A DNA stretch of 64,000 bases from Escherichia phage NHEP29, in the sequence record PQ511150.1; one strand, given 5' to 3'. Of the stretch, positions 28,722 through 34,163 are shown one piece after another (the first letter of the stretch is position 1; each line of letters opens with the position of its first letter). Position numbers and translations under genes: made by a program. The notes below the pieces were generated by a model, which saw only the letters and a program-made list of their open reading frames with translations, had not been told where the DNA came from and did not search any database.

Positions 28722-28947
28722 CTCGGTCCCATGATTTGGCCATTAATTCGGACATAAATTCTTCAATGCGCGTTTCTTTAGATGGACTTTCACTATTAGA
28801 GACCGCAAGTTTGTAATCTGCAATAGGACAGAACATATCAAGGTCCATATTAAGGTCGTCTTTGATTTTTTCTTCTGACACATCTTTATCGTATGTGTAC
28901 AGATAACTATCACATGATTCTGATTTAATGTAAATTGCTATACTCAT
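28711..28947 (-). CDS. hypothetical acidic protein
   Basis: ORF trimmed to MSIAIYIK; overlaps neighbours. Confidence 0.4.
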   Translation of the reverse strand: MSIAIYIKSESCDSYLYTYDKDVSEEKIKDDLNMDLDMFCPIADYKLAVSNSESPSKETRIEEFMSELMAKSWDRDDE

Positions 28948-29435
28948 CTCAAATTCCTGCATTCGGTAATAAAACGTTCAACTTCATTATTCTTGGCTTT
29001 TATCTTGTCTTTATGTTCCTGTAAACTACTTTTAATAAGATTAATAATGATGGCTGCAGTACCGCCGCCAATGATGCCACCAACAACACTTATGATACTA
29101 GATGCTAATAAGATAGCAATAATATCAACAAAACCGAAAGAACTCACCTTAGTACTGAAAAACCATATAGATGGTACAAATATAATCCATCCTGTTATCC
29201 ATTGGCACTTATTGAAAAACTTTTCAAGCTCAGCTTGAGTTGTTCGTATTACTTCATCGATAGGTTGATATCCATTAATGTATCTGTTCACGATAATACC
29301 TGCCGGCTGGTCGATTTTAAATTCTTGGCAAATACGTTTCACTAAGTAGGATGGACATCCTGTCCAATCTACTGAATAGTATGAAATACCTTCATTGCCA
29401 TCGTCTATATTAGACCAATATGTTTTGTTAATCAT
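28944..29435 (-). CDS. hypothetical membrane protein (C-terminal FITECR motif)
   Basis: 163 aa with two hydrophobic helices; C-terminus ERFITECRNLR. Confidence 0.5.
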   Translation of the reverse strand: MINKTYWSNIDDGNEGISYYSVDWTGCPSYLVKRICQEFKIDQPAGIIVNRYINGYQPIDEVIRTTQAELEKFFNKCQWITGWIIFVPSIWFFSTKVSSFGFVDIIAILLASSIISVVGGIIGGGTAAIIINLIKSSLQEHKDKIKAKNNEVERFITECRNLR

Positions 29436-30121
29436 TACCAGCCTTCCATAGGGAATTCCAGATAAACTTGAGCATTGACACGAATTTCATTGGTAATCTT
29501 TTTAACTCGGTCTGTATTACGAGATACACGTCCGAACCAACGCCATCCATTACTAATTGCACGAGAACCAGTGTGCCATGTTTGCCAATCAAACTGAAGA
29601 AGAGTACGATCTGGAGCTTCCCATTTCTCTAGTTCACCTTTTTCAATTTTTTCGAGGACTTCTTTGTGCCACTGACGATAGATAAGTTCGCCATCAGGAA
29701 TCTGACTGAACTCTGCAGTTCCTGTTGCAAAATGAGTAGGACACACGTCAGCGTTAACAAGACCAAGAATATGTTCAGACAAATAGCGAGGATTGTCATA
29801 ATCAGGTTGTCCTGCAGTAATAAAGTGTTGACCAACTGGAATATCAGGGCGCGGTACGTCATCATGGTGATATCCAGGAATAGCAGGATACCAACCAGGC
29901 ATCAGCATGTGGACTCGTGAATCAAATACAACCTGGTCGGTGTTCCAATCATCTGGCAAGTTCATGATGAAGCTGCGAGTAATAGGACCACCATTATTAT
30001 AAGCAAATTCTAAACTACAGTTGAAGAACATAGGCTCGTTTTTAATCTGGTCATTTTTAATCGCGTGAGCAAAACCACCTACTGCACGAGCTTGACTATT
30101 AAACACTTTAGAACTATTCAT
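29435..30121 (-). CDS. hypothetical protein
   Basis: 228-aa ORF, His/Trp-rich, no motif recognised. Confidence 0.55.
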   Translation of the reverse strand: MNSSKVFNSQARAVGGFAHAIKNDQIKNEPMFFNCSLEFAYNNGGPITRSFIMNLPDDWNTDQVVFDSRVHMLMPGWYPAIPGYHHDDVPRPDIPVGQHFITAGQPDYDNPRYLSEHILGLVNADVCPTHFATGTAEFSQIPDGELIYRQWHKEVLEKIEKGELEKWEAPDRTLLQFDWQTWHTGSRAISNGWRWFGRVSRNTDRVKKITNEIRVNAQVYLEFPMEGW

Positions 30122-30122
30122 A

Positions 30123-30428
30123 TTATTTTCCTCGACATTCTTTAATGAAATTTTCTAGATTGGTAGATTCAATAGCTTTTTTACGAGCTTCTGCGTGTTC
30201 TTCTTCGGACAATTTACGTTTATAATTGACCCAGACATTATGGTCGAAACCAGACGTGGCATATAATAACAAAGCTCCAACGAATAGCAAAAACGGCGAT
30301 AAGAATACAAAACCAGGAACACCATCCATATCGTAAGCCTTTTGTAATACTGCAACAGAAAGGGTTGCGTAAAAAGGCGATGCAAGTATTGTTAAAAGAC
30401 CGATTCGATTGGTTTCTGTTAATTTCAT
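30123..30428 (-). CDS. hypothetical membrane protein (C-terminal ENFIKECR motif)
   Basis: 101 aa, two TM helices, ends LENFIKECRGK. Confidence 0.5.
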   Translation of the reverse strand: MKLTETNRIGLLTILASPFYATLSVAVLQKAYDMDGVPGFVFLSPFLLFVGALLLYATSGFDHNVWVNYKRKLSEEEHAEARKKAIESTNLENFIKECRGK

Positions 30429-30484
30429 AATATTCTCCTCAAGTTGATAGGACTACTATAACATGGCCCTATCAGTTTGTACAC

Positions 30485-30703
30485 TTATTTTGACATTTCT
30501 TCGATGTCACGACGATACCCATCACGAACTTCACGAAGAGCTTCAAGGCCACACATAGGCTCGATACCAGTAATGTGAACTTGATTAATCTGATACTCTA
30601 CATCTTCTAACTGAGCGAAAACATAACGACGTTCTGCTGCACAACCAGGTTTAGCTTTACCGAAACGTTTATTCAAAGTAGTCATTTTTATATCTCCATT
30701 CAC
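30485..30703 (-). CDS. hypothetical protein
   Basis: 72-aa ORF downstream of promoter cassette 30715-30753. Confidence 0.5.
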   Translation of the reverse strand: MNGDIKMTTLNKRFGKAKPGCAAERRYVFAQLEDVEYQINQVHITGIEPMCGLEALREVRDGYRRDIEEMSK

Positions 30704-30765
30704 TCATTTGTTTTGATAGGTCTATAGTATCAACAACTACAGACCTTGTAAACTGTTTTGTGAAA

Positions 30766-32250: not shown

Positions 32251-32259
32251 ATGATTTCC

Positions 32260-32532
32260 TTAGCAAGTGTGAGAAGATGCAATCCAACCACCAGTTTCGA
32301 GGCTCAGGTTGTAGTCGTATTGGTAAACGTCGGCCCATTCAGCATAGCCGTTTTTTGTACAACGTTCAAGATCGGCTTTAAGATGTCCGGGTGAATGATA
32401 GGTTCCACCCATACCATAAGCTGGATACAAGTTGAATGTTGTGTTTTGTTTATCAGCAATTTCTTTGGCAGCCTCAATAGCTGCATAGATTTTTGCTACA
32501 GCTTCAGCCAGTTCGGTTTGTTCTTTAGACAT
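32260..32532 (-). CDS. hypothetical protein, tandem paralog 1 (C-terminal ...GGWIASSHTC)
   Basis: 90 aa; shares N-terminal MSK and C-terminal GxW(V/I)(S/A)SSxxC with the upstream neighbour. Confidence 0.55.
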   Translation of the reverse strand: MSKEQTELAEAVAKIYAAIEAAKEIADKQNTTFNLYPAYGMGGTYHSPGHLKADLERCTKNGYAEWADVYQYDYNLSLETGGWIASSHTC

Positions 32533-32541
32533 AATGATTCC

Positions 32542-32847
32542 TTAGCACAACGCAGAAGACGAAACCCAAGCACCTTCAGTAATAACGTAACCATTACCTT
32601 CACGCTTAACATCGCCACCATTATTTTCAATTTCATCTTTCATCCACTGGGATACGATTTCACCCTTAGGATAATAAGTACGTCCGCTACCATAATCACC
32701 TACAGAAAATGATACGGCATATTGGTCTGCGATCTTTGTTGCTTCTTCTTCGATACGTTCAGCTTGATTCAGAAGTTTATAAATTGCATCTGAAGCGGAT
32801 TTGGCATCGTTAAACTCTGGTACTTTAATTTCAATAATCTTACTCAT
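32542..32847 (-). CDS. hypothetical protein, tandem paralog 2 (C-terminal ...EGAWVSSSALC)
   Basis: 101 aa; paralogous to 32260-32532. Confidence 0.55.
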   Translation of the reverse strand: MSKIIEIKVPEFNDAKSASDAIYKLLNQAERIEEEATKIADQYAVSFSVGDYGSGRTYYPKGEIVSQWMKDEIENNGGDVKREGNGYVITEGAWVSSSALC

Positions 32848-33203
32848 TTTCTACATTCCTTAATAAAGTTTTCGATTGTTTCATTTTCACGTTTAGCTAG
32901 AAGTTCATTATAACTAATCATTTGAGAAGCGTAAACCTTTTTATTTTTCTTGTTATGGTTTATAAAATCATAGTAAAAATAGACTACAGTGCAAAATGAT
33001 GCGATGGATGCAAAGGCCTGTGTATACCGTAAGTCCTGCCATTGGTCTGTGAATCCACCAGTGTTCCCTATAAATCCTAACACAACGCCGTCAATAAGAA
33101 ATCCAACTAATCCAAAGGCAAATCCCATGCCGGCACTCATGATAAAAATTAGAATGTTCTCACCAAGAGAAGGCCATACGGTTAAGAGTTGAGGCTTTTG
33201 CAT
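32844..33203 (-). CDS. hypothetical membrane protein (C-terminal ENFIKECR motif)
   Basis: 119 aa, TM helices, ends IENFIKECRK. Confidence 0.5.
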   Translation of the reverse strand: MQKPQLLTVWPSLGENILIFIMSAGMGFAFGLVGFLIDGVVLGFIGNTGGFTDQWQDLRYTQAFASIASFCTVVYFYYDFINHNKKNKKVYASQMISYNELLAKRENETIENFIKECRK

Positions 33204-33607
33204 CTTATTTCCTTAACGAATTCCATAGCTTCTTCATATTCATACTTTTTAACAGCTTCATCATACTGAGCTTGGGCTTTTGCGCACTGAACTTTCCATT
33301 CTCTTAATCTGGCTCTGTGATGGCGGCCTTGGTGCCAATATCCTGCCCAATTAATAGGCATTAATAAAAACGGTACAATAAGTGGTGCGACGAACATTAA
33401 TGAAAACGCTGCATCAGACGATATAACTTTATTGGAATCTAAAATAGCTCCTATAATCATAAAGATTAAAAATGCTAAAGCTAAAATAGGGCCAAATAGT
33501 ATTTCGTTTGGGATTAATTTACGTTTGTATTCGTATGCCCAGGGTTTAATTGGCATGTACAGGGTTGGCTTTGACATATTCTCTACATTCCATAATAAAT
33601 TGCTCAA
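33182..33607 (-). CDS. hypothetical membrane protein
   Basis: 141 aa with TM helices; C-terminus EFVKEIRCK. Confidence 0.5.
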   Translation of the reverse strand: MSNLLWNVENMSKPTLYMPIKPWAYEYKRKLIPNEILFGPILALAFLIFMIIGAILDSNKVISSDAAFSLMFVAPLIVPFLLMPINWAGYWHQGRHHRARLREWKVQCAKAQAQYDEAVKKYEYEEAMEFVKEIRCKSLNS

Positions 33608-34163
33608 GGATTAAATTGTTAGTGAAATTAGGACTAACAACCATGGTTTCATAAAGCGCATCAATAGCACTTAAAGCATCAACTCTTTTAAGCAAGGGCT
33701 TGCCTTCATACATAGTTTCAGAATCGACGATTAACGTAAAGTAATATTTTTTATTATCGACTAGAACTTCTGTGTCAATATAAAACATATTAGACCTCAG
33801 AAGCTTATCTCTAAAACCGTAATAATCTTCTGAACGTTCACTGATATATTCCCATTCAGTGTTTAAACAACAAACAGACCATGTAGGAGCGACGAAATCA
33901 GTGAATCTAATATCATGGTCTGCAACTAGTTTAGCAATAGCTCCGATATCATGAATCATAATACCTGGGGCTAATAAAGATTTTCGGTTATTTGCATATT
34001 CAGTTGTCTCATAAGAAGACGACCAGTACCATTTACGTCCAGTTGCAACATATCGTAATGAATCAACTAAAGACGTAGGTGGATTTACCTTATTTCGGAA
34101 CTCTTCGAACATTGAGTCAATATCATTATTTTGGTTTCGCATGTTAACTCCTTTATTATCCAA
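33546..34163 (-). CDS. hypothetical protein
   Basis: 205-aa ORF; C-terminus LILEQFIMECRE. Confidence 0.5.
   Translation of the reverse strand: MDNKGVNMRNQNNDIDSMFEEFRNKVNPPTSLVDSLRYVATGRKWYWSSSYETTEYANNRKSLLAPGIMIHDIGAIAKLVADHDIRFTDFVAPTWSVCCLNTEWEYISERSEDYYGFRDKLLRSNMFYIDTEVLVDNKKYYFTLIVDSETMYEGKPLLKRVDALSAIDALYETMVVSPNFTNNLILEQFIMECREYVKANPVHAN

Follow-up and report, generated by a model that had tools for sequence, protein, structure and literature searches.

A shared C-terminal motif in heterogeneous proteins encoded between e.6 and nudE of a T4-type coliphage

Conservation of the C-terminal motif

The analysis of a 64,000-nucleotide stretch of Escherichia phage NHEP29 (sequence record PQ511150.1; hereafter the window, at its full length) disclosed five proteins, encoded in the gene cluster lying between e.6 and nudE, that terminate with variants of the same short motif; they are the homologues of T4 e.2, e.3, e.4, and e.5 and the product of ORF133c. 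In general form, the motif can be written as Φ-x-x-[F/W]-[I/V]-x-x-[C, rarely V/I/L/S]-[R/K], with 0–16 residues after it. Judging from the sequences compared, it is very probably selected as a peptide and not as a DNA junction, and its best description appears to be that of a cluster-wide C-terminal tag carried by heterogeneous scaffolds, rather than a trait of one membrane-protein family.

The motif is non-random and, in the window and in two complete genomes, it is exclusive to this gene cluster. Translated in six frames, the 64 kb yields four matches to the expression E.F[IV].E[CI]R, whereas 200 shuffles give 0.005 on average, and all four matches are on one strand, 1–11 residues ahead of a stop codon, in e.2, ORF133c, e.3, and e.5. 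The complete Mosigvirus mar005p1 genome (168,962 bp) has four matches to F[IV].[ED]C[RK] in its six frames, which are these same four tails, and the complete Tequatrovirus LF73P3 genome has three, corresponding to e.2, e.3, and e.5. The five C-terminal endings are those that an initial annotation of the window had listed, and all of them are encoded on the minus strand.

The same ending was found in T4, RB69, JS10 (Dhakavirus), VR7 (Gaprivervirus), CIP9 (Kanagawavirus), and two metagenomic T4-like phages, and orthologue tails were also taken from ten IMG/VR isolates. Orthologues belonging to at least six Tevenvirinae lineages keep Φ-x-x-[FW]-[IV]-x-x-C-[RK], with Cys, Arg, and Leu codons that vary synonymously. 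The e.2 proteins end, for example, with VERFITECRNLR (the window), LNSFIEECRK, LNNFITECRKLK, FDKFVKGCRNGRN, or FENWIEGCRK; the e.3 proteins, whose orthologue tails come from T4, JS10, and VR7 among others, with IENFIKECRK, MKEFVIDCRKIK, LETFIKECKS, ELFIKNVRRK, or SESFITQVRRK; and the e.5 and e.5-like proteins with LEQFIMECRE, LEKFVKECRE, LNRFI[KAT]ECRE, VLDFVDQCRA, VDRFVQECRD, or INDFIEDCRE. The e.4 tails include MEFVKEIRC, MKFVKESRC, and KEFIKEIRN, the orthologues ending with KFVKESRC... in T4 and EFIKEIRNGTA in VR7.

Codons were counted over 43 distinct tail sequences. Cys is encoded by TGT in 21 cases and by TGC in 17; Arg by AGA (8), AGG (5), CGA (3), CGT (16), and CGC (4); and Leu by CTT, CTA, TTA, and TTG. 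Within the window, the tails of e.3 and ORF133c have eight residues in common, and the 4 differences among the 24 nucleotides encoding them are all synonymous; of the 72 single-base changes that these codons could undergo, only 10 are of this kind.

The conservation extends to very distant relatives. A HMMER scan with e.2 over 1.84 billion representatives yielded nine distant homologues (28–36% identity), every one of which ends with [FW]-I-x-x-C-R-[KRN] and whose contigs show the T4-type context e.2-(ORF130c)-nudE-e. In the ten-sequence e.2 alignment (25–32% identity), seven columns are invariant: five of them are located in the N-terminal domain and the others are the Cys and Arg of the motif (C159 and R160), the motif Ile being nearly invariant as well. 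The residue preceding the Cys is E, G, D, or R in these homologues, so that Glu is not essential. The identity of the motif-bearing proteins across genera is 26–47%, versus 62–88% for e.6 and 76–93% for ORF132c (62–93% for the two together); because of this, the tail can be regarded, at the sequence level, as an island of constraint within fast-evolving proteins.

The 5.3 kb span containing these genes shares 96–98% identity with JS09/RB69-type coliphages (genus Mosigvirus), and the source of the window is an RB69/JS09-like Mosigvirus, i.e., a T4-type coliphage. All the genes of interest are located on the minus strand (Table 1). According to the annotation of related records and to the T4 and RB69 maps, from which gene names and order were taken, the order of transcription is e.6, e.5, e.4, e.3, three small paralogs, ORF135c, ORF134c, an open reading frame (ORF) of 66 aa, ORF133c, ORF132c, e.2, ORF130c, nudE, and the lysozyme gene e. 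The e.6-e.5-e.4-e.3 synteny is the same as in T4 and RB69, and 13 of the 14 loci compared have e.6 directly ahead of the e.5-type gene; it is missing from the VR7 locus. The start codons of two genes were revised: e.5 likely starts from the ATG at 34142, which is preceded at 4 nt by a Shine-Dalgarno (SD) sequence AAAGGAG, instead of the TTG at 34163, and e.4 likely from the ATG at 33577 (MSKPTL, as compared with T4 e.4) instead of the TTG at 33607.

Table 1. Features of the e.6-nudE region of the window and of its surroundings, listed by descending position.
Feature	Position	Strand	Description
Internal-head-protein-like gene with capsid targeting sequence (CTS)	35785-36411	minus	MYTFNEFLAE
e.6	34191-34784	minus	coiled-coil protein, upstream of e.5
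e.5 homologue	33546-34142	minus	198 aa, soluble; phrog_2607, E 1e-94; C-terminus ...LEQFIMECREYVKANPVHAN; motif LEQFIMECR at 33582-33608, then EYVKANPVHAN and stop
e.4 homologue	33182-33577	minus	131 aa, two hydrophobic segments; phrog_2604, E 6e-58; C-terminus ...AMEFVKEIRCKSLNS; variant motif AMEFVKEIR at 33203-33229
e.3 homologue	32844-33203	minus	119 aa, membrane; phrog_2330, E 2e-49; C-terminus ...IENFIKECRK; motif IENFIKECR at 32850-32876
Promoter-like TTTACG-17-TATAAT	32907-32935	minus	within the last 30 e.3 codons, upstream of the paralog array
Paralog 1 (RB69 ORF139c/138c equivalent)	32542-32847	minus	101 aa, ends GAWVSSSALC; phrog_899, E 1e-22
Paralog 2 (ORF137c)	32260-32532	minus	90 aa, ends GGWIASSHTC; phrog_899, E 1e-18
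Paralog 3 (ORF136c)	32053-32250	minus	65 aa, ends QGWVSSSYSC; blastp vs paralogs 1 and 2, E 0.003-0.004
PeSL-like element	32005-32054	minus	TTTACA-17-TATAGT; downstream of paralog 3, upstream of ORF135c
ORF134c		minus	Pfam/NCBIfam domains DUF7277 and DUF7275
PeSL-like element	30700-30752	minus	TTTACA-17-TACTAT
66-aa ORF	30485-30685	minus	bracketed by the 30441-30490 and 30700-30752 elements
PeSL-like element	30441-30490	minus	TGTACA-17-TATAGT, embedded stem GATAGG...CCTATC; upstream of ORF133c
ORF133c	30123-30428	minus	101 aa, two hydrophobic segments; phrog_9798; C-terminus ...LENFIKECRGK; motif LENFIKECR at 30132-30158
ORF132c	29435-30121	minus	between ORF133c and e.2
e.2 homologue	28944-29435	minus	163 aa, with two hydrophobic segments between an N-terminal domain and the tail; C-terminus ...VERFITECRNLR; motif VERFITECR at 28956-28982
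Internal-head-protein-like gene with CTS	27462-27758	minus	

Proteins bearing the motif

Although T4 is among the best-studied viruses, no function is known to have been assigned to its genes e.2 to e.5 or to those next to them. The window proteins are clear members of the catalogued families e.2 (PF26896; phrog_2203), e.3 (phrog_2330), e.4 (phrog_2604), and e.5 (PF26876; phrog_2607), whose entries treat each family apart and give no function for any of them; searches by motif strings and by gene names retrieved no paper or family description linking e.2-e.5 through a shared C-terminal motif. The window e.2 matches phrog_2203 with an E value of 6e-54 over residues 1–161 and its homologues carry the Pfam domain PF26896 (Phage_T4_Y06M), while e.5 shares 47% identity with T4 e.5, with a conserved tail, PF26876 being precomputed on e.5 homologues. 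The matches of ORF133c obtained with tblastn are in Mosigvirus only. As regards the cluster as a whole, Pfam and NCBIfam scans revealed no informative families except for DUF7275/DUF7277 on ORF134c; sequence searches of the PDB with ORF139c, e.5, and e.6 gave no significant match, and e.6 and ORF132c have neither a Pfam family nor a PDB relative. Word-indexed homologue searches returned only close relatives for e.5 (14 proteins), e.3 (3), and ORF139c (7).

The initial annotation had described the bearers as mostly membrane proteins and had suggested that they might represent a real small-membrane-protein family. Hydropathy analysis agrees with the first statement for four of the five proteins, since e.2, ORF133c, e.3, and e.4 exhibit the same succession of two hydrophobic segments, a Lys/Arg-rich stretch, and a charged tail of 35–55 residues; e.5, by contrast, has no hydrophobic segments.

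It might be that all the bearers descend from one two-pass membrane protein, the tail being its slowest-evolving part. The architecture shared by ORF133c, e.3, e.4, and the C-terminal half of e.2 is what such a descent would leave, and some sequence similarity points in the same direction: ORF133c matches the e.2 profile phrog_2203 at positions 90–165, i.e., the membrane part plus the tail (E 0.0037), and hhalign, on shallow alignments of 2–4 sequences, joins e.3 to ORF133c over 35 columns with 89% probability and e.3 to e.4 over 45 columns with 80%. In addition, e.3 and e.4 share the start M-x-K-P-x-L (MSKPTL at 33577 and MQKPQL at 33203 in the window; MSKPSL at 3194 and MQKPKL at 2820 in T4), and two successive junctions carry one repeated unit, made up of the tail motif and the next start (M-x-K-P). 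However, once the motif is removed from these same shallow alignments, no pair of families exceeds 6% probability. Moreover, e.5, its JS10/CIP9-type counterparts, and a family of 98–99 aa found in CIP9 and in two metagenomic phages are soluble and unrelated in sequence, and yet they bear the tail, the latter family ending with LDKFIKQCRR, LETFIKMCRG, or LNHFIKECRR. It is because e.5 and the 98–99-aa proteins also end in the motif that one membrane-protein family probably does not account for its distribution, and a single diverged family embracing all the bearers is considered rather unlikely. It fits for the membrane subset only: e.3/e.4 and ORF133c/C-terminal half of e.2 are probably old tandem paralogs, the tail having probably been acquired secondarily by the other bearers. 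Hence, of the small-membrane-protein family initially suggested, what stands is that the ending is a selected protein feature and that some of the bearers resemble paralogs; the soluble bearers and the loss of similarity without the motif speak against the remainder. It can also be mentioned that, in the genomes harboring the 98–99-aa family, a membrane family of 131–143 aa shows a degenerate form of the ending (...GF[VA]xx[LI][KR]K).

Gene junctions, recombination, and tandem paralogs

In this cluster the genes are packed end to start, with ATGA or overlaps of 11–32 nt at most junctions, so that the codons of the motif also fall in the translation-initiation region of the next gene. The initial annotation had proposed that these codons double as the SD sequence, which is true for some junctions. 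The best SD at both e.4-e.3 and e.3-ORF139c is TAAGGAA, corresponding to the K-E codons of the motif, and at e.2-ORF130c it is GCAGGAA, corresponding to the C-R-N codons; at ORF133c-ORF132c, the best SD (CGAGGA) is located in the R-G codons just past the motif, and at e.5-e.4 only a weak one (−3.3 kcal/mol) can be recognized. In the case of e.4, the Cys codon that follows the motif overlaps the start codon of e.3 (AGATGC).

On this basis, the peptide might merely result from the translation of a ribosome-binding region that is conserved for the coupled downstream gene and consists of an A/U-rich enhancer, an SD, and a spacer. At each of the five window junctions, no more than 10 nt separate the end of the last motif codon from the next ATG (in e.4 this codon overlaps the ATG), and the strong preference for TTT, ATT, and GAA, as well as the persistence of the sequence in the apparently untranslated remnants described below, would be expected from such a by-product. 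The junction RNAs are also unusually unstructured: three of the five (33560-33625, 33186-33251, and 32830-32895, minus strand) fold worse than 94–96% of their dinucleotide-shuffled versions (z about +1.4), and for none of the five is folding significantly better than in the shuffles, which is consistent with selection for unstructured initiation regions. Nevertheless, neither distance nor frame is fixed, since the TTY codon precedes the ATG by 17–28 nt and in frame +1 or +2, and the SD is embedded in different codons at different junctions. The peptide is kept even where it supplies no SD, as in ORF133c (AAA GAA) and in the e.5-like gene of JS10, whose tail (TTT ATT AAA GAA TGC CGT) contains no SD and is placed 21 nt upstream of the next ATG, the following gene having its own SD (AAAGAGG). 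The switches between AGR and CGN for Arg and between TGT and TGC for Cys alter the RNA and not the residue, and in the distant e.2 homologues F/W, I, C, and R are maintained, whereas the residue before the Cys changes (E, G, D, or R). Translationally coupled, overlapping phage genes do resemble this cluster in the overlaps present at most junctions and in the SD placed within the last codons of the upstream gene; coupling alone, however, predicts a purine-rich RNA at a fixed distance, and what is found is a nine-residue peptide with synonymous turnover and variable distance. An explanation based on translation initiation alone is therefore judged improbable.

Selection on the peptide has nonetheless to face some observations that weigh against it. 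Firstly, the 43 tails are phylogenetically related and their codons do not represent independent events. Secondly, the codons for Phe, Ile, and Glu are strongly biased (TTT in 38/43, ATT in 36/37 Ile codons, GAA in 41/43), which would fit an additional preference, at the RNA level, for initiation regions that are rich in A/U and unstructured. Thirdly, the motif is intact in two apparently untranslated remnants. The e.2 gene of T4 (NC_000866, 1991-2461, minus strand) contains two in-frame stops, TAG and then TAA, and the in-frame remnant downstream of them still ends with ...NLNNFITECRKLK exactly at the nudE start; in Tequatrovirus LF73P3, at least 153 open codons precede the same e.2 tail and the gene is intact. 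Similarly, the e.3 remnant of p000v, which is apparently untranslated, has an intact motif. The remnants that keep the motif could have a value at the DNA or RNA level, as promoter and SD for the next gene, or they could have been inactivated recently.

Some other RNA- or DNA-level elements were considered at the junctions. A structured RNA element was rejected on the comparison of the foldings with the shuffled sequences; no RegB (GGAG) site, MotA box, or late promoter was seen within the motif in the tail sequences inspected; and an epsilon-like translational enhancer was rejected because AACTTTA is present at the e.3 junction only.

Recombination offers a different reading, in which the 22–27 nt or so at the gene ends would have served as short homology for cassette exchange or unequal crossing-over. 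The genes downstream of the bearers do vary (e.3 is followed by e.2 in T4 and by the paralog array in Mosig-, Dhaka-, Gapriver-, and Kanagawavirus, and e.5 by e.4 or directly by e.3, depending on the genus), the e.5 and e.4 tails of T4 have 16 identical nucleotides in common (AAATTTGTTAAGGAAT), and the e.5/e.4 and e.4/e.3 junctions repeat the tail plus the next start as if unequal crossing-over had duplicated e.4/e.3. Against this, the identity between tails is short and imperfect (77–91% over 22 nt), and their differences are synonymous, whereas a recent conversion would give identical copies; besides, the motif persists in lineages between which the DNA has diverged too far to recombine.

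The position of the indels is also at variance with this reading. The regions differing from RB69, p000v, mar005p1, and L010 are 30473-30746, between PeSL-like elements, and 32936-33187, inside e.3; neither indel ends at the motif. PeSLs (promoter-early stem-loop cassettes) are short conserved sequences found at gene boundaries in hyperplastic regions of T4-type phages, for which a role in modular shuffling has been proposed (Arbiol et al. 2010, PMC2839356; Comeau et al. 2014, PMC4122927), and the consensus of their promoter part (T4/PST type) is TTTACW-N17-TAYWAT (PMC4122927). Three elements of the window (Table 1) resemble them, their promoter part fitting this consensus; on the basis of their sequence, they can be assigned to the PeSL-like class, as each combines a promoter with a stem-loop, is repeated, and flanks a variable ORF. 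The elements at 32005-32054 and 30441-30490 represent a 50-nt repeat with 84% identity. The window and the phages 55 and SA79RD have the 66-aa ORF bracketed by two of these elements, and RB69, p000v, mar005p1, and L010 lack it; in the alignment with RB69, a single hybrid element takes the place of the ORF. This is a textbook PeSL-bounded cassette indel. The real cassette junctions of the span are thus the intergenic PeSL-like elements, lying a few hundred bases from the motif. PeSLs are intergenic, non-coding, and conserved as DNA, while the ENFIKECR motif is coding and conserved as a peptide; its 27 nt contain neither promoter hexamers nor a stem, and they are away from the indel boundaries among close relatives, so that the motif does not qualify as a PeSL.

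The second indel is a deletion with endpoints inside e.3, which has removed the greater part of the gene from p000v, moha, and L010 and left the last 30 codons in place. In p000v (4991-5090, equivalent to window 32847-32936), the remnant keeps the promoter-like TTTACG-17-TATAAT sequence and the SD for the first paralog, which may be the reason for its survival. A further rearrangement is suggested by the metagenomic protein P0017, in which e.3 residues 1–72 are joined to an out-of-frame ORF130c region (window 32990-33203 and 28743-28913), implying either a natural deletion of about 4 kb, from the e.3 tail through e.2, or an assembly chimera.

The initial annotation had considered the motif as a possible footprint of cassette recombination and had taken a DNA similarity confined to the gene ends as the sign of a junction artefact. 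The similarity from tail to tail is in fact restricted to about 22–27 nt, as in such an artefact, but the codon-level evidence contradicts this verdict, as the Arg and Cys codons vary freely. In addition, the motif is kept at 25–35% protein identity, and the indels map elsewhere. A recombination junction as the explanation of the motif is therefore highly improbable. The tail DNA may have taken part in ancient unequal crossing-over events, without this being the explanation of its present conservation.

The genes between e.3 and ORF135c represent a different case. The initial annotation had regarded those at 32260-32532 and 32542-32847 as paralogs, and this was borne out: both match phrog_899, blastp aligns them with one another over 73 aa (E 1e-5), and their junction, TGCTAAGGAA(A)TCAT(T)ATG, with stop, SD, and start arranged as TGC TAA GGA A.. 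ATG, is embedded in a 48-nt direct repeat. A third copy, at 32053-32250, had been missed. Only M1, one Trp, two Ser, and a C-terminal Cys, which is always the last residue, are invariant in 12 aligned members. The arrays (window 32053-32847; L006 5351-6595; L008 3024-4283; L027 2963-4586) have 3–5 copies, with three in the window, four in JS10, and five in VR7, CIP9, and L030. The AlphaFold model of paralog 1, with a predicted local distance difference test (pLDDT) score of 88.8, consists of a long helix and a small sheet, and no solved structure matches this predicted fold. The W..SS..C-COOH genes are, thus, a separate and genuine family of tandem paralogs, distinct from the ENFIKECR bearers. 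Two peculiar forms were observed: one paralog type possesses an internal WLNSSC in addition to a terminal WYPSSC, and in RB69 (7735-8041) the gene corresponding to window 32542-32847 is split by a frameshift into ORF139c (71 aa) and ORF138c (33 aa).

Proposed role of the tail

Overall, the explanation that we consider best, and moderately probable, is that of a peptide selected at the protein level and having a docking role. As to the mechanism, a quite possible, though tentative, model can be drawn from the sequences, according to which the peptide would be a common cytoplasmic docking or assembly helix on the proteins encoded between e.6 and nudE; through their tails, these proteins would bind one shared partner, or each other, to give one membrane-associated module. 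At some junctions the motif codons also supply the SD for the next gene, as a second constraint acting on the RNA and not as the cause of the conservation.

The spacing of the conserved residues (i, i+3, i+4, i+7) would place Φ (−3), F/W (0), I/V (+1), and C (+4) on one face of a helix having a basic end, and the hydrophobic moments of most tails are 0.5–0.86, in comparison with means of about 0.33 for the shuffled sequences. In the AF2 model of e.5, the motif belongs to a terminal helix (residues 177–192) predicted with low confidence (pLDDT 63). From this low-confidence model and the hydrophobic moments, the tail is predicted to be helical and amphipathic. In e.4, and in proteins of other genera that resemble e.3, the position of the Cys can be occupied by V, I, L, or S, which argues for a role in packing of the hydrophobic face over that of an obligatory metal ligand. 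An obligatory metal-binding Cys was rejected on account of these replacements, and a membrane-targeting amphipathic helix on account of the net charge of about 0 to +1.

The basic residues that follow the last hydrophobic segment suggest, according to the positive-inside rule, that the tails of the membrane proteins are cytoplasmic; e.5 is presumably cytoplasmic as well. A candidate partner for the tails, from sequence and gene order, would be e.6, the conserved coiled-coil neighbour. It is possible, if speculative, that Φxx[FW][IV]xxCR is a dedicated address tag, equivalent at the C-terminus to the N-terminal CTS, which would recruit a changing set of fast-evolving early proteins, both membrane and soluble, to one conserved hub; this might be e.6 or a host inner-membrane machine. 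A point against e.6 as the hub comes from the 14-kb locus of VR7, which lacks e.6 and still contains three motif-bearing genes.

The prohead protease of these phages recognizes the cleavage consensus Φ-x-E. The sequence I-x-E is present in the motif of the window proteins, and absent from many e.2 homologues, which have I-K-G instead (e.g., FIKGCRK) and so lack the Glu needed for such a site.

Among known systems, the closest to such a shared terminal peptide tag is the CTS, the only conserved feature among the diverse internal proteins of T-even phages (PMC3012670). The CTS and the motif are alike in being terminal peptides of about 10 residues carried by otherwise diverse proteins from plastic regions of the same phages. 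They differ in that the CTS stands at the N-terminus and sends its proteins to the scaffolding core of the prohead, while the motif is C-terminal in every case and is found on membrane and soluble, presumably non-virion, proteins. The core of the CTS, EF[IL]xE, resembles that of the motif, FIxE; this is a lead that might be coincidental. The window itself harbors two internal-head-protein-like genes with a CTS (Table 1), that at 35785-36411 starting with MYTFNEFLAETEVITE....

The case described here allows a peptide under selection to be distinguished from a ribosome-binding site contained in the preceding gene and from a recombination junction, all of which resemble one another in a raw sequence. 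A tag common to four or five otherwise unrelated proteins, and kept across genera in which the remainder of each protein has drifted to about 30% identity, offers a concrete handle on the ORFans of the well-studied T4, and suggests that those from e.2 to e.5 act together. If the motif were truly an address tag, the region from e.6 to nudE would encode an as yet unrecognised modular membrane complex, whose adaptors are swapped among phages while the tag is kept.

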